Source of the DNA: an uncultured Gemmatimonadales bacterium
GTDB taxonomy: Bacteria > Gemmatimonadota > Gemmatimonadetes > Gemmatimonadales > GWC2-71-9
Length of the DNA: 64,000 nucleotides
Direction: 5' to 3'
Assembly: GCA_963771275.1 (NCBI GenBank)
Contig: CAVYSW010000009.1
Span: 192,001-256,000, forward strand
Shown: positions 2,475 through 64,000 of the stretch, piece after piece
Numbering within the stretch: the stretch's first letter is position 1
Layout: each line of letters opens with the position of its first letter
Notes under the pieces: model-generated
Databases searched by the model: none
Told to the model about the DNA's origin: nothing
The model's input: the letters and a program-made list of their open reading frames with translations, nothing else
Made by a program: the position numbers and the translations under genes

Positions 2475-2571
2475 AATGTTCAATGTTCAATGTTCAATGT
2501 TCAATGTCCAATGTCCAAGGAGTCGAGCAGGCGGTCCATCACTGCCCGACAGCCTTGGTCATGGGACATTC
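2475..2571. repeat. Heptamer-arm palindrome, CAATGTY family, copy 1
   Basis: aatgtt (caatgtt)3 (caatgtc)2 caag, a 34-nt hairpin insert, then cttg gtcatgg gacattc. Confidence 0.85.
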
Positions 2572-2593: not shown

Positions 2594-3496
2594 TCAGTCG
2601 TGCTTCACCGCCGCTCCCCTGGTTCCCAGATAGATCGCTCCCAGCGCGAGCAGCGCCCCCGCCAGATCGCTCGCACGGGTCGGCCGGTGAAACAGCAGCA
2701 CATCCCACACGAACGCGAGCGATGGCTGCAGCAGCAGCACGAGACCCGCCCGGCCGGCCTCGACGTGCGGCAGGCCGTGGGAGATCAGCAGCCACGCCAC
2801 CACCTGCGCGGTCACCCCGTAGCCCAGGAGCAGCGCGCCGGTGCGTGCGTCGGGGATCGCGAAGGTCGCCCCTTCCAACCCCACGCTCGCGGCGAGCAGC
2901 GCCGTCGTGACGAAGCAGATCGTCATGAGGTTGGGAATCGGCTCGAGCCGGCCCGCGCGCGCCTGGCTGGCGCGGAGCGCCAGGAGGTACGACCCGTACG
3001 ACACCGCGGTGAGCAGCCCCAGCACCACACCCCACCGATAGCCCGCCGGCAGCGCCCTCCAGTCCACGCCCACCAGCAGAAACAGCCCCACCAACGCGAG
3101 CGGGATCCCGACCACGAGCCGCCAACTCGGGCGCTCCTTGAGAATCAGGATGCCGAAGGCCGCCAGCATGAACACCTGGAAGTTGGCGAGGATCGTGGCG
3201 AGCCCCGGACCGACGAGGTGGATGCTGCGGTGCCAGAAGATGAGATCGAACGTGAAGGCCAGTCCCGCCGCCGCCGCGAACCCGAACGCCCGGCCCCCGA
3301 CCCAGAGGCGCTCGCGCCGCGCCGTGGCCAGCGCGAGCAGCACGATCCCGCCCACCAGCATGCGGTAGAACCCCGCCGCCGTGGGCCCGATGGTGGCCAG
3401 CTTCACGAACACGGGCGCGACGCTCAGGAGCACCGCACCCGCCGCGACCTGCCACAGGGCCAAAGTCGGGCGGCGCCGGTCGGGGGATGCAATCAC
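2594..3496 (-). CDS. DMT/EamA family transporter
   Basis: About 10 TM helices in two EamA-like halves (GLATILANFQ, LLLQP); GTG start inferred. Confidence 0.88.
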   Translation of the reverse strand: MIASPDRRRPTLALWQVAAGAVLLSVAPVFVKLATIGPTAAGFYRMLVGGIVLLALATARRERLWVGGRAFGFAAAAGLAFTFDLIFWHRSIHLVGPGLATILANFQVFMLAAFGILILKERPSWRLVVGIPLALVGLFLLVGVDWRALPAGYRWGVVLGLLTAVSYGSYLLALRASQARAGRLEPIPNLMTICFVTTALLAASVGLEGATFAIPDARTGALLLGYGVTAQVVAWLLISHGLPHVEAGRAGLVLLLQPSLAFVWDVLLFHRPTRASDLAGALLALGAIYLGTRGAAVKHD

Positions 3497-59253: not shown

Positions 59254-60003
59254 ATGCGATTCATGAACAAGGTCGTGCTGATCACCGGCGGCACCCGGGG
59301 CGTCGGGCTGGCCACCGCCCGGGCATTCGCCCAGGAGGGTGCCAGCGTCGTGATCACGGGGCTCGACGCGGCACGCGGCCGCGAGGCGGCGGGCATGGTC
59401 CTCCGAGCCACGTTCATGGAGGGCGACGTCCGGGTCGCGGCCGACTGCGGCCGCGTGGTTGCAGACACCACGAAGCGACTCGGACGACTCGACGTGCTCG
59501 TCAACAACGCGGGCGTGATCTATCGCAACCGCACGGTCGAGCAGACGACCGACGACGAGTGGGACACGACGTTCGCGACCAACGTGAAGGGCGCGTTCTT
59601 CATGAGCCGGAGCGCCCTGCCCGCCCTGCGCGCGACCACGGGCAACATCGTGAGTGTCGCGTCATACGCCGGCCTTGTGGGATTCGCGGGGGCGGCGGCC
59701 TACGCGGCGTCCAAGGCCGCCCTGGTGAACCTCACGCGCACGATGGCGCTCGACCACGCGGGCGAGGGCATCCGCGTCAACTGCGTATGTCCGGGGAGCG
59801 TCGAGACCGACATGATCTACCAGGCCTGGCAGGCGTTTCCCGACCCGGAGGCGGCGCGGCACCGGTGGGAGGAGAAGCACCCGCTCGGCCGGATCGCCAC
59901 CCCCGACGAGGTCGCCAAGGGGATCCTGTTCCTCGCGTCGGACGACGCGGCGTTCATCACCGGCGTCGCCCTGCCGGTGGATGGAGGGATCACGGCGGCC
60001 TGA
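59254..60003 (+). CDS. SDR family oxidoreductase
   Basis: ITGGTRGVG, NNAG, YAASK, IRVNCVCPG, VDGG. Confidence 0.93.
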   Translation: MRFMNKVVLITGGTRGVGLATARAFAQEGASVVITGLDAARGREAAGMVLRATFMEGDVRVAADCGRVVADTTKRLGRLDVLVNNAGVIYRNRTVEQTTDDEWDTTFATNVKGAFFMSRSALPALRATTGNIVSVASYAGLVGFAGAAAYAASKAALVNLTRTMALDHAGEGIRVNCVCPGSVETDMIYQAWQAFPDPEAARHRWEEKHPLGRIATPDEVAKGILFLASDDAAFITGVALPVDGGITAA

Positions 60004-60068
60004 ACCGGCGCCGCGCGCGCCTTGACGCCGCGCGCGTCGGCGGCTTACCGTTCGCCAAGTCGCAGTCA

Positions 60069-60125
60069 GGCGATGGAGTTCGCCGTACAACCGCCGCCAT
60101 GCCGAAGGCGGCTGATGACTCCTGT
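60069..60125 (+). ncRNA. Fluoride riboswitch (crcB motif) upstream of the dynamin-like gene
   Basis: GGCGATGGAGTTCGCC-GTACAACC-GCCGCC...GGCGGC-TGATGACTCCT: P1, P2 and the GGAGT/ACTCC pseudoknot; anti-SD stem onto AGGAG; TTGACG-N18-TACCGT promoter at 60022-60051. Confidence 0.9.
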
Positions 60126-60153
60126 CACCCTTTGGGTCGGCAGGAGTTCTTGC

Positions 60154-61872
60154 ATGTCAGCAACCCTGACCGTCACCTGCGTGGTGCCCGACGCGCTGGA
60201 TCGCCTCCGCCACCTCGCCACGACCGCCGGTGCGCCCGACATCGCGGCCGAGGCGCGGGAGCTCGCCGAGCGCGCCGCCGCCGGCCGCTTCTACGTGGTC
60301 TGCATCGGGCAGTTCAAGCGCGGGAAATCCACCCTGATCAACACGCTGCTGGATGACGATCTGCTCCCGACCGGCGTGCCGCCGGTCACCTCGGTGCCGA
60401 CGATCGTGCGGGCCGGCGAGCGCAGCGCCCGCGTGCGGACCGCTGAGGGCTGGCAACCCGTCCCGATCGAGGAGCTGGGGCGCTACGTGTCGGAGGACGG
60501 CAACCCCGGCAATGTGCAGCGGGTGCTCGCCGTCGAGGTGTTCTCGTCGAGCCCCCTCCTCGCCGGCGGCCTGTGCCTGGTGGATACGCCCGGCCTGGGC
60601 TCGGTCATCGAAGCCAATTCGGCGGCGACCCGCGAGTTCCTCCCGCACGTGGACGCGGCCATCGCGGTGCTCGGCGTCGATCCGCCGGTCTCGGCGGAGG
60701 AGATGGCGTTCCTCGCGGAAACCGCCCGGCAGGCGGACACCATCGTGTTCGTGCTGAACAAGGCCGATCACCTGCCCCCCGGCGAGCGGGCGGCCGCCGT
60801 CGCGTTCACGGAGCGCGTGCTCACCGAGCGGCTCGGACGGCCCCCGGATCGGCTCTACCAGGTGAGCGCGCTTCCCAGCAAGCGGACACCGGAGAGCGAC
60901 GCCGAGTGGGCCGCGCTGGTGGAGCGGCTCCGTGGCCTGCCGGACGCGGCGGGCGATCGCCTGCTGGACGCCGCCGCGCGCCGCGGGGTAGCCCGCCTTG
61001 GCGGCCGCCTGCGCTGGGCACTCGACGAAGAGCGGCGGGCGCTGCTCGCGCCGGTCCAGGAGGCCGAGACCCGCGCCGCCACGTTGCGTGACCTCGCGGC
61101 CGACGCCGACCGCGCGCTCGGCGACCTCGGCCCGTTGCTCGCCGCGGAGCACCAGCGTCTGGGCCGCGCCTTCGTCACCGCCCGCGAGGACTTCCTTGCG
61201 CGGGCTCGTCCGGCCGCGCGCCAGGACCTGGATCGACGGCTCCCGGCGGCCGCCGATCGGAGGCCGCCAAGTCGCGCGGTCGCCCTGGACCTCGCATGTC
61301 AGACGGCCCGCGAGCACCTCGAACCCTGGCTCCGGGAGGCGGAACAGCAGGCGTTGCGCGCGTACGTCACGGCGACGGCCCGCTTCACGAGCATCGCGCA
61401 CGCGTTGCTCAAGCAGCTGACGGCGGCGGCCGGCGTCACGCCGGACGGCTGGAGTGCGGACGACCTCGTGCCCGCGGGCCTCTCCGCCCCGCCGCGGTTC
61501 TACTTCGCGGGGCGCATGGCCTACCACTACCCGAGCGCCCCATGGGCGGCGTGGCTCACCGACCGGCTCACGCCGCGGGGCCCGCGCGGGCGCCGGGTCC
61601 GCGCGGCCGCCGGGGCGTACCTCGAGGATCTGCTGAGCGTCAACGCGGAACGGGTCAAGAACGACCTGGATCAGCGCGTCCTGGAAAGCCGGCGGCAGTT
61701 CGAGTTCCGATTCCGCCGCGTGCTCGGCACGATCGTCCGTTTGGCGTCCGAGTCGCTCGAGCGTGCCCGGACGCATGGCGAAGGGCTCCCGCATGAACGT
61801 CCGCAGGAGCCATCAGCCGGCCCGGACGCCGGCGGTTTTCGGTGGGCCCCATCACCTTCGGCGGGATTCTAA
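60154..61872 (+). CDS. Dynamin family GTPase (bacterial dynamin-like protein)
   Basis: GQFKRGKST, LPTGVPPVT, DTPG, NKAD, helical stalk; ATG 60154 follows AGGAG. Confidence 0.9.
   Translation: MSATLTVTCVVPDALDRLRHLATTAGAPDIAAEARELAERAAAGRFYVVCIGQFKRGKSTLINTLLDDDLLPTGVPPVTSVPTIVRAGERSARVRTAEGWQPVPIEELGRYVSEDGNPGNVQRVLAVEVFSSSPLLAGGLCLVDTPGLGSVIEANSAATREFLPHVDAAIAVLGVDPPVSAEEMAFLAETARQADTIVFVLNKADHLPPGERAAAVAFTERVLTERLGRPPDRLYQVSALPSKRTPESDAEWAALVERLRGLPDAAGDRLLDAAARRGVARLGGRLRWALDEERRALLAPVQEAETRAATLRDLAADADRALGDLGPLLAAEHQRLGRAFVTAREDFLARARPAARQDLDRRLPAAADRRPPSRAVALDLACQTAREHLEPWLREAEQQALRAYVTATARFTSIAHALLKQLTAAAGVTPDGWSADDLVPAGLSAPPRFYFAGRMAYHYPSAPWAAWLTDRLTPRGPRGRRVRAAAGAYLEDLLSVNAERVKNDLDQRVLESRRQFEFRFRRVLGTIVRLASESLERARTHGEGLPHERPQEPSAGPDAGGFRWAPSPSAGF
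61803..61856 (-). ncRNA. Second fluoride riboswitch, antisense to the dynamin 3' end
   Basis: Minus strand GGTGATGGGGCCCACC-GAAAACC-GCCGGC...GCCGGC-TGATGGCTCCTGC, with compensatory changes in P1, P2 and the pseudoknot relative to copy 1. Confidence 0.85.
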
Positions 61873-61894
61873 GCCAGCCCGTTCGGGCGGTCAA
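61866..61894 (-). promoter_or_regulatory. sigma70-type promoter driving riboswitch 2
   Basis: TTGACC-N17-TAGAAT; -10 ends 9 nt before the aptamer. Confidence 0.8.
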
Positions 61895-61916
61895 TCGCCG
61901 GGCGATGGCGGGAGAT

Positions 61917-61941
61917 CGTGCAGCGTGCGGCGTGCAGCGTC
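61917..61941. repeat. Single arm of the GCGTGCA heptamer family
   Basis: cgtgca gcgtgcg gcgtgca gcgtc. Confidence 0.6.
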
Positions 61942-61947
61942 GGGGGC

Positions 61948-62454
61948 TCAGAGGCGCAGCATTGCCACCACGCCCAGCACGGCGATGACCAGGCCGAGGG
62001 CGACCTTCGCCGCCGCGCCGACCGCCCGCCCAAGCACGGCGCCCCATCCCGCGCTCACCGCCGCGCCGCCGGCCCGTGCAACCGTGTACTCGCCCAGCGT
62101 GGCACCGGCAAACGAGCCGGCGAACGCGCCGATCACGCTGCCGACGATCGGCACCGGCACGCCGACCACCGCACCGACGATCCCGCCCACCAGCGCGCCC
62201 CAGCCCGCGCGCCGCGATCCCCCGTAGCGCCGCGCGTACCGGAAGCCCGCCCACGCCTCGATGATCTCGCCGGCCATGGCCAGCCCGACGACGAGCGCGA
62301 TCGTGGCGATGCCCACCGACGCGAAGCCGGTGAGCCAGCCGAAGCCGATCACCCCCAGCACCATCAGCCACAGGCCCGGCAGGCCAAGCGGCACGAGGGC
62401 GAGGCCGACGGCGAGGACGGCGCCGAGCAGCAGCCCGGCAAGCAGCGCGGACAT
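61948..62454 (-). CDS. DUF456 family membrane protein
   Basis: LPGLWL, ARRYGGSRRAGWGALVGG, GSVIGAFAG. Confidence 0.88.
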   Translation of the reverse strand: MSALLAGLLLGAVLAVGLALVPLGLPGLWLMVLGVIGFGWLTGFASVGIATIALVVGLAMAGEIIEAWAGFRYARRYGGSRRAGWGALVGGIVGAVVGVPVPIVGSVIGAFAGSFAGATLGEYTVARAGGAAVSAGWGAVLGRAVGAAAKVALGLVIAVLGVVAMLRL

Positions 62455-62491
62455 GTGCGGCGATCAGCTCGTCAAGTGTACCTTCGGCGGG

Positions 62492-62520
62492 ATTCTATCG
62501 GCGCCCGCTCAGGTGGTCAA
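62492..62520 (-). promoter_or_regulatory. sigma70-type promoter for the DUF456 gene (duplicate of 61866-61894)
   Basis: TTGACC-N17-TAGAAT. Confidence 0.75.
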
Positions 62521-62632
62521 TCGCTGGCAGAGTCGGTGCCGGCGCGTAGCTTAGAGGTGTCCGCCACCCCCCGGCCGCGCTGCGGCGTCCTGGGGCGTAC
62601 GGATGGACCAGGCAACCGGGGGTAGCGCCACC

Positions 62633-64000
62633 ATGAGCGACGCCATCGAGCGCCTGAACACCGCCTGCGCCGGCCACTACCGGGTCGAGCGCGAGCTGGG
62701 CCGCGGCGGCATGGCCGCCGTCTATCTCGCCGAGGATCTCAAGCACCATCGTCACGTCGCCATCAAGGTCGTGAAGCCCGAGCTCGCGGCTGTGCTCGGG
62801 CCCGACCGGTTCCTGCGGGAGATCGAGATCTCGGCTCGGCTGGATCACCCGCACATCCTGCCGCTGTACGACTCGGGCGAGGCGAACGGGCTGCTCTACT
62901 ACGTGATGCCGTACGTGGAGGGCGAGTCGCTGCGTGACCGCCTCGCGCGCGAGAAGCAGCTCCCCGTCGATGACGCGCTCCAGATCGCCCGCGAAGTGGC
63001 GGACGCGCTGTCGTATGCGCACAGCCACGACGTCGTGCATCGCGACATCAAGCCCGAGAACATCCTGCTGGCCGGGGGGCACGCCCGGGTGGCGGACTTC
63101 GGTATCGCCCGCGCCATCACCGAGGCGGGGGGGCAGCGCCTCACGCAGACGGGTCTCGCGATCGGCACGCCGGCCTACATGAGCCCCGAGCAGGCCGCGG
63201 GGAGCCGGGACCTGGACGGCCGCAGCGATCTCTACAGCCTGGGGTGCGTGCTGTACGAGATGCTCGCCGGCGAGCCGCCGTTCACCGGCCCGGCGGACAC
63301 GCTGGTGCATCAGCATCTCACCGTGCAACCGACCCCGATCACGTCGCTCCGGCCGGCCGTGCCGCCGGCTGTCTGCGCGGCGCTGATGCGGGCGCTCGCC
63401 AAGACGCCAGCAGACCGGTTCAGCCCCGCAGCGCAGTTTGCGGAGGCGTTGCGCACGTCCGGGACGCCGGCTCCGCTGCCCAGTGTCGCGCAACCGTCCG
63501 AGACGCTGGGCGCCGACCCGCTGCGCGTGGCGGGCGTCGTTGCCGTCGCCGCCGTCGCGCTGCTCGCCGCGGCGTCGTTCCTCGTGAGCCGGCTCGGGCT
63601 GCCGCGCTGGGTGCTGATCGTAACGATCGTCATCGTCGCCGTGGCACTCCCCACCGGCGTGGTCACGAGCCTCGCAGAGCGATGGCGGGCGCGCGGGACG
63701 GCACCGCGGAGCGGGCTCGGCCTCTTCACCTGGCGGCGCACCGCGGTCGCTGGCGGCACCGCGCTCACCGTCCTCGCCCTCACCACGGCGGGGTACGTCG
63801 CGTCCCGCGCCCTCGGCATCGGTCCGGCGGCGACCCTCCTCAGCACCGGAGCGATCAGCGAGCGCGAGCCCCTCATCCTCGCCGACTTCGCGAACCGGAC
63901 CGCCGACTCGACGCACGGGGCCACAGCAACCGAGCTGATGCGGATCGGGCTCTCCCAGTCACCGACCGTCTCAATCCTCGACCCGGTTCAGGTGAGCCAG
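62633..64000 (+). CDS. Membrane Ser/Thr protein kinase (3'-truncated by window edge)
   Basis: ATG 62633; ELGRGGMA, VAIK, HRDIKPEN, DFG, GTPAYMSPEQ, then TM helices; not in the ORF track because no stop is reached. Confidence 0.93.
   Translation, partial: MSDAIERLNTACAGHYRVERELGRGGMAAVYLAEDLKHHRHVAIKVVKPELAAVLGPDRFLREIEISARLDHPHILPLYDSGEANGLLYYVMPYVEGESLRDRLAREKQLPVDDALQIAREVADALSYAHSHDVVHRDIKPENILLAGGHARVADFGIARAITEAGGQRLTQTGLAIGTPAYMSPEQAAGSRDLDGRSDLYSLGCVLYEMLAGEPPFTGPADTLVHQHLTVQPTPITSLRPAVPPAVCAALMRALAKTPADRFSPAAQFAEALRTSGTPAPLPSVAQPSETLGADPLRVAGVVAVAAVALLAAASFLVSRLGLPRWVLIVTIVIVAVALPTGVVTSLAERWRARGTAPRSGLGLFTWRRTAVAGGTALTVLALTTAGYVASRALGIGPAATLLSTGAISEREPLILADFANRTADSTHGATATELMRIGLSQSPTVSILDPVQVSQ

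Follow-up and report, generated by a model that had tools for sequence, protein, structure and literature searches.

The 64,000-nucleotide stretch analyzed here (the window; from contig CAVYSW010000009.1 of an uncultured Gemmatimonadales bacterium, assembly GCA_963771275.1) carries a gene for a dynamin-like GTPase with a fluoride riboswitch (RS1) ahead of it and a second, complete fluoride riboswitch unit (RS2) that lies on the opposite strand, overlaps the last codons of the gene, and points back into it. We read RS2 as an orphaned leader and its overlap with the gene as a scar, whichever way the junction between the two arose: by deletion, by import, or by a mis-join in the assembly. The history that we favor, and consider probable if far from certain, is a strain-private deletion that left the RS2 leader orphaned at a structurally polymorphic locus. 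The elements that meet at this junction are as follows (SD, Shine-Dalgarno sequence; ORF, open reading frame; GC3, GC content at third codon positions).

60060-60131, plus strand: RS1, the fluoride riboswitch ahead of the dynamin gene (RF01734, 51.1 bits)
60154-61872, plus strand: dynamin ORF of 572 residues (Pfam Dynamin_N)
60154-61773, plus strand: native residues 1-540 of the dynamin-like GTPase (98% identity to homologue P0002; GC3, 0.907)
61773/61774, no strand: junction at which dynamin codon T540 meets the RS2 unit, where homology to P0002-P0008 ends and the contigs of sequencing runs X1, X2, and X5 break (at 61773)
61774-61872, plus strand: non-native tail of 32 codons (residues 541-572) plus TAA, the antisense of the RS2 leader, common to no homologue
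61774-61776, minus strand: RS2 start codon ATG, whose final base is where the RS2 unit ends at the junction (the run contigs match the window down to 61773)
61784-61811, minus strand: RS2 expression platform, an anti-SD hairpin covering the GGGAG SD (61790-61786) in the minimum-free-energy fold
61797-61865, minus strand: RS2 fluoride riboswitch aptamer (RF01734, 49.0 bits, E-value 1.5e-10, full model, 1-64 of 64)
61866-61894, minus strand: promoter-like site P, composed of TTGACC (61894-61889), a 17-nt spacer, and TAGAAT (61871-61866), matching 10 of 12 consensus positions in a promoter scan
60157-61776, minus strand: mirror-frame ORF of 540 codons that begins at the RS2 ATG, considered non-coding (no Pfam family)

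RS2 is an intact riboswitch unit. Scanning the 64 kb with Rfam returned a single family, the fluoride riboswitch RF01734 (gathering score, 34), with two matches, RS1 and RS2, and the whole genome adds just one more, on contig C3. RS2 scores well above the gathering threshold along the entire model, and the Rfam alignment contains its conserved helices and pseudoknot; in the latter, GGGGC pairs with GCUCC through one G-U, the same variant as in the related loci L032 and L036, RS1 having GGAGU/ACUCC instead. Sites like P number two within 59900-62700, against a mean of 0.0 over 50 shuffles. Downstream, a helix of 9 to 10 bp joins GGCUCCUGC (61811-61803), from the 3' tail of the aptamer, to GCGGGAGCC (61792-61784), which holds the SD, in the minimum-free-energy fold of the leader (-37.9 kcal/mol, z of -2.43, with 2 of 200 shuffles equally stable). 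The SD stands 9 nt ahead of the ATG at 61776-61774, and a second in-frame ATG (61794-61792) lies within the hairpin. A terminator scan found neither a U-tract after the helix nor a terminator-like site on the minus strand past the aptamer, and because no U-tract follows the helix, the platform is best taken as translational; RS2 thus reads as a translational ON switch, like RS1, which has an anti-SD hairpin before the ATG at 60154 (fold z of -4.17). An earlier reading made from the letters of the window alone (the sequence-only reading) had described a minus-strand TTGACC-N17-TAGAAT, an intact aptamer, an anti-SD stem, and an ATG at 61776, and the Rfam match, promoter scan, and fold bear out all four. 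What follows the ATG is no gene of a fluoride regulon: as that reading also had it, the codon opens only the mirror frame of the dynamin gene, down to 60157.

On the plus strand, the second helix of the aptamer and the conserved AAAACC form a terminator-like hairpin with a T-run (61816-61833) inside the dynamin tail; with one such site found versus 0.5 expected in shuffles, it may be there by chance.

The dynamin gene has a recognizable GTPase domain (Dynamin_N, PF00350, at 5.5e-23 over residues 92-247 of a 616-aa frame), and it is the other end of the protein that is aberrant. Its closest homologue, P0002, is 98% identical, 566 aa long, and encoded on a Logan contig of 3569 nt; six others (P0003-P0008) are 73 to 79% identical. 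All seven end in a conserved stretch of 30 residues, ...ERAR.ARAAG..AVAAEIRRIDAALDELSGLLGxA, which the window protein follows as far as ...ERART (T540, codon 61771-61773) before continuing into 32 unrelated residues, so that the C-terminal helix conserved in the family is missing from it. Eleven homologues from the 400 other genomes of the order likewise align no further than query residues 539-547, and GC3 is 0.576 in the tail versus 0.907 in the dynamin body. Because the homologues stop aligning after T540, the junction falls between 61773 and 61774, immediately beside the RS2 ATG. The sequence-only reading had RS2 overlapping the last ~33 dynamin codons, with a tail that looked non-conserved; the tail is indeed foreign to the family, its length being 32 codons, and the overlap of the dynamin TAA (61870-61872) with the -10 box of P (61866-61871) is as that reading stated. 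Dynamin genes of this kind are sparsely distributed, occurring in 12 of the 401 genomes of the order and in none of the six of the same genus (71 to 89% complete), one of which alone has a fluoride riboswitch match, and that one below threshold.

Related loci indicate what the arrangement normally looks like. Among 11 related dynamin loci scanned with Rfam, six have a fluoride riboswitch ahead of the dynamin gene and on its strand (L006, L007, L030, L031, L034, and L037), and three (L031, L032, and L036) carry a second one on the opposite strand that faces the dynamin gene; a riboswitch overlapping the dynamin ORF was found in none of the 11. With facing pairs recurring in 3 of the 11 relatives, the earlier view that it is unusual for a gene to lie between two riboswitches for the same ligand that face each other is not supported. 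In L031, L032, and L036, the facing riboswitch heads an operon whose end is only a few bases away from the dynamin stop and whose order is geneA-crcB-DUF190 in L031 and L036 and geneA-DUF190 in L032, with 0.9 to 1.3 kb of cargo genes lying between the riboswitch and the stop. The closest DNA relative, a metagenome contig of 2087 nt (L042; 75% protein identity), retains the native end of the dynamin gene, and 10 nt beyond the stop a DUF190 gene converges on it. The sequence-only reading had offered, as one of three options, that deletion of the gene originally controlled had joined its leader to a shortened dynamin, and had proposed comparing the synteny and dynamin C termini of relatives. That comparison supports the option in essence: homologues keep the native C terminus that is missing from the window, and relatives have an intact geneA-(crcB)-DUF190 between such a riboswitch and the dynamin stop, which by the criterion of that reading itself would make the overlap a scar only.

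The gene that we term geneA, whose product is 137 to 163 aa long in these operons, belongs to an uncharacterized family of about 150 aa, which matches no Pfam family and in which a signature made up of QRRH and RGYG..(H/D)P..LDP is conserved. The gene is found either next to dynamin genes or directly behind fluoride riboswitches, where it precedes crcB/DUF190, and the family members at the loci compared here are the following.

L036, 125-577, plus strand: geneA
L032, 463-939, plus strand: geneA
L031, 168-581, plus strand: geneA
L007, 4002-4472, minus strand: geneA
L006, 970-1428, plus strand: geneA

A geneA profile recovers 73 homologous proteins from the protein collection, all from Gemmatimonadota wherever the source names an organism. 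The structure is confidently predicted as a helical bundle (predicted local distance difference test score [pLDDT], 87.3) that has no match in the PDB at an E-value of 0.001 or less, the best hits being generic ferritin-like bundles at about 0.4.

Several properties connect RS2 to this family. Its leader is 72 to 74% identical to those of L032, L036, and L007 versus 53 to 69% to the other ten leaders compared, among which is a fourth geneA-type leader, that of L031, at only 53%. RS2 has its platform sequence and its GGGGC/GCUCC pseudoknot variant in common with geneA-type leaders, and the TTGAC(C/G)-N17-TAG..T layout seen in P recurs in L032 and L036, ahead of their geneA-type riboswitches. 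geneA itself was not found in this genome by a profile search that was positive in 5 of 5 control genomes. Because of this subtype, platform, and promoter layout, and because the search for geneA found nothing in the genome, RS2 looks like the leader of a lost, geneA-headed convergent unit.

We therefore propose, conditionally, the following history. RS2 would once have led a gene or operon convergent on the dynamin gene, and the lost cargo, judged by riboswitch subtype, would most likely have been a gene of the geneA family. A deletion or illegitimate recombination, for which we infer both the direction and a size of roughly 0.45 to 1.5 kb, would have taken this cargo from its second codon on, together with the last 30 dynamin codons. 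The dynamin frame would then read through the antisense of RS2 up to the TAA in the -10 box, and the RS2 ATG would be left to open just the dynamin mirror frame, which is naturally free of stops. Such a scar may belong to the continuing loss of a fluoride-responsive dynamin module whose distribution is patchy.

Public sequencing runs provide strains closer than any of these relatives. Logan contigs from three DNA runs belonging to three studies (X1, X2, and X5) cover the region at ~99% identity to the window, and among them and the window the locus has at least three structures.

Form 1 (X1): full dynamin gene, with other sequence beyond it
Form 2 (X2 and X5): RS1 and the dynamin gene replaced by 129 other letters
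Form 3 (the window): fusion of dynamin and RS2

The X1 contig that encodes P0002 covers 59900-61773 and then continues with 174 nt unlike the window, long enough to hold the native 30 codons and a stop with 81 nt to spare. A second X1 contig, 2425 nt long, matches the window over 61773-62476 (RS2, P, and the neighboring DUF456 gene), and this part is preceded by 301 nt and followed by 1420 nt that differ from the window; none of the 73 proteins found with the geneA profile could be tied to this contig. In X2 and X5, position 60011, which is 8 nt past the stop of the SDR gene, is linked to 61773 through the 129 other letters, such that RS2 is kept at the locus while RS1 and the dynamin gene are missing from it. 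X5 additionally contains short dynamin pieces identical to the window, and these have the alleles of the window, not those of X1, at 61650 and 61741. The one RNA run compared, X24, placed 0 reads on the stretch, which bears neither way on expression, and no RNA run was listed among those containing it. The structure found in the window has no independent witness.

This raises the prospect that the junction was made by the assembler: an X1-like dynamin haplotype could have been joined at 61773 to an X2-like haplotype devoid of dynamin, in which case no cell contains the overlap. We regard such a mis-join as rather unlikely, although it deserves more weight than any other alternative considered here. 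It would account for the left side of the window having the X1 form and the right side, with the promoter repeat P' and a kinase gene, having the X2/X5 form, and mixed populations do exist, X5 holding both a dynamin-less contig and dynamin pieces identical to the window. Several further observations fit a mis-join and, at the same time, weigh against a deletion in the source strain: the flanks are ~99% identical in all three runs, and yet no colinear bridge over 61773 occurs among the listed contig pieces of X1, X2, and X5; the fused protein with its odd tail is recorded from one contig only, that of the window itself; and a break located precisely beside, or a deletion ending exactly at, a start codon would be a coincidence. 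A deletion is also hard to reconcile with the RS2 unit being wholly intact (49 bits, a consensus-like promoter, SD, and ATG), which is unexpected for a long-orphaned leader; from this intactness it follows that the event is recent or that the unit is still in use. Finally, a history consisting of one deletion may be too simple, and a more complex rearrangement may have occurred, because the sole crcB-DUF190 pair of this genome, which has no riboswitch, lies 4.6 kb from RS2, upstream of it on the same strand, and the DUF190 of this pair shares 88% identity with the one beside dynamin in L042 but only 48 to 66% with the copies of the same genus.

Other features nevertheless speak against an assembly error. 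The break falls inside the dynamin gene, at a place where the other two forms have nothing in common by which a graph assembler could be led astray, and the lack of such a branch point argues somewhat against a chimera of the graph type. The contig is 460,881 nt long in a genome of 11 contigs that is 96.7% complete. Logan contigs drop rare variants, which makes absence from the listed pieces weak evidence, and the window alleles at 61650 and 61741 in X5 point to a window-like strain outside the assembly. On this balance we retain a strain-private deletion as the probable origin of the junction, and its presence in the source strain is likewise something that we infer.

The same comparison permits a route in the opposite direction, in which a locus of the X2/X5 type (SDR gene end, 129 nt, RS2) gained an RS1-dynamin cassette from a related strain through a homologous join on the left and an illegitimate one on the right, at T540 beside the ATG. 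Where X2 and X5 have 129 nt, the window has 1761 nt (60012-61772), and P' and the kinase are common to both forms, as expected from such an import. The illegitimate join would, however, have to be as precise as that in the deletion model, and the recipient would itself hold an RS2 with no real cargo (129 nt before the end of the SDR gene), for which reason the recipient form also looks derived by deletion. We consider recombination import improbable.

The frame that RS2 opens invites the interpretation, the last of the three options in the sequence-only reading, that the 540 codons encode a real, fluoride-induced protein overlapping dynamin. A good SD and ATG behind a riboswitch do open a long frame. 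Its composition is nonetheless that of the dynamin gene reversed, with GC contents at codon positions 1, 2, and 3 of 0.907/0.541/0.78 versus 0.778/0.55/0.89 for dynamin, and its sole stop, at 60157, is the antisense of the second dynamin codon, TCA. Among 601 long, GC3-rich frames of this genome, 125 have a mirror frame that is open throughout, and the mirror frame of dynamin is open in L042 also, where no riboswitch is present. The ORF has no Pfam family and owes its existence to the junction alone. By its composition and the frequency of such frames, the 540-codon frame is a high-GC artifact, and the existence of an overlapping protein is contradicted to the point of being very hard to credit.

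A regulatory role for the overlap, the remaining option, would work as follows: fluoride frees the SD of RS2, translation of the mirror ORF shields the RS2 transcript from Rho, and antisense transcription dampens or times the induction of dynamin driven by RS1. The promoter, aptamer, SD hairpin, and ATG that it needs are all intact, convergent transcription units are physically present, and riboswitch-controlled antisense RNAs occur in other bacteria. The platform, however, has no terminator, so that RNA synthesis from P would proceed irrespective of fluoride, and both switches would turn on together and oppose each other. Comparative support is lacking as well: the overlap is seen in 0 of 11 related loci and in none of the 98 to 99% identical strains of X1, X2, and X5, RS2 exists in X2 and X5 with no dynamin gene to regulate, and the loss of a conserved C terminus of 30 residues looks like damage, not design. 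Fluoride-tuned antisense control or transcriptional interference is accordingly quite unlikely as an explanation of the arrangement. It is similarly doubtful, even if the junction is real, that RS2 makes translation of the mirror ORF and, via protection from Rho, antisense transcription across dynamin dependent on fluoride; were this true, the locus would hold an excludon-like circuit of convergent transcription at its accidental birth, in which one ligand induces a gene from its 5' side and at the same time interferes with it from its 3' side.

Beyond RS2, the window and the rest of the genome contain further elements that bear on the history of the locus.

61948-62454, minus strand: gene for a DUF456 membrane protein, just upstream of P (PF04306 at 1.6e-24)
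62480-62527, minus strand: P', a second copy of the promoter and first 12 transcribed nt (CCCGCCGAAGGT), before DUF456 (repeat D2, 48 nt, 81% identical)
G000:C9:258448-259291 (L041, 5446-6291), minus strand, just outside the window: the sole crcB-DUF190 pair of the genome, followed by a MIP aquaporin gene
G000:C3:1449234-1449293 (L003, 1501-1560), minus strand: third fluoride riboswitch (40.8 bits)

P and P' form a direct repeat of 48 nt on the minus strand (61854-61901 and 62480-62527) that comprises the -35 and -10 boxes and the first 12 transcribed nt, 3 of which belong to the first helix of the aptamer. All eight mismatches of the aligned core fall within the 17-nt spacer, and none in the other 28 positions. 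With just two occurrences in the 3.86-Mb genome, the motif is ruled out as a general promoter consensus, and P' may be the stump of another riboswitch leader; it is absent from the X1 contig, which parts from the window at 62476. The DUF456 gene was considered as the original cargo of RS2 and rejected, given 0 fluoride riboswitches at 17 related DUF456 loci and a synteny that is not conserved.

The crcB-DUF190 pair has its own TTGACC-N17-TATTCC site and is not accompanied by geneA, and no riboswitch, including degraded ones, was detected before crcB down to an E-value of 1. Since its DUF190 is closer to the L042 copy than to those of the same genus, RS1-dynamin, RS2, and crcB-DUF190 may have started out together in a single fluoride island and been rearranged afterward. 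Speculatively, the gene order would fit a tandem duplication with two subsequent deletions, and no trace of dynamin sequence was found at the DUF190/MIP joint that it predicts. The third riboswitch, on C3, leads a protein of 136 aa with no Pfam family and then a zinc-ribbon/HEAT-repeat protein, with no exporter, and this cargo rules it out as the displaced leader of crcB.

The pairing of a fluoride riboswitch with dynamin extends beyond this clade. A dynamin homologue stands directly behind a fluoride riboswitch at 8 of 18 further loci from metagenomes and genomes, and the pairing recurs in Gemmatimonadota and in metagenome-assembled genomes of Acidimicrobiia (L006, L031, L034, L037, L048, L050-L053, L055, L058, and L059). 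Two of these loci contain divergent, back-to-back fluoride riboswitches: in L037 (3076-3143, minus strand, and 3235-3302, plus strand), one leads a dynamin homologue and the other a putative membrane protein, and in L053 (2379-2438, minus strand, and 2500-2558, plus strand), one of the pair leads a dynamin homologue. No paper treating a fluoride riboswitch together with dynamin was found in the literature searched. In passages of a 2024 review (PMC11139923), the cargo commonly found behind riboswitches comprises exporters, Na+/H+ antiporters, pyrophosphatase, haloacid dehalogenases, enolase, and formate hydrogen lyase, and those passages make no mention of a GTPase. The dynamin-like GTPase and geneA, where they follow fluoride riboswitches, are uncharacterized parts of the fluoride response. 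The locus in the window is a fluoride-response locus whose structure varies among strains that are ~99% identical. It is of modest interest in its own right as a natural example of how an intact riboswitch leader can lose its cargo and come to drive antisense expression.

Compared with known systems, RS2 resembles the translational RF01734 (crcB motif) leaders of fluoride-export operons in having a full-length aptamer, an SD-sequestering platform, and its own promoter. The same subtype heads geneA-crcB-DUF190 operons in relatives, whereas RS2 is followed only by the antisense of dynamin, and the crcB-DUF190 pair of this genome, unlike those operons, has no riboswitch. Antisense RNAs under riboswitch control are known, such as that of the B12 riboswitch and AspocR of Listeria monocytogenes, and RS2 is like them in lying opposite a gene and pointing into it. 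Such systems, however, gate transcript elongation and are conserved with their target, and RS2 displays neither property, having no terminator and an overlap that is absent from relatives and sister strains. With the convergent pairs of L031, L032, and L036, the window shares two facing fluoride riboswitches and a dynamin gene behind one of them, and it differs in that the cargo between is missing. The value of the comparison is mainly corrective: what appears to be a striking layout is not a new regulatory design but the normal convergent layout of the clade minus its middle.

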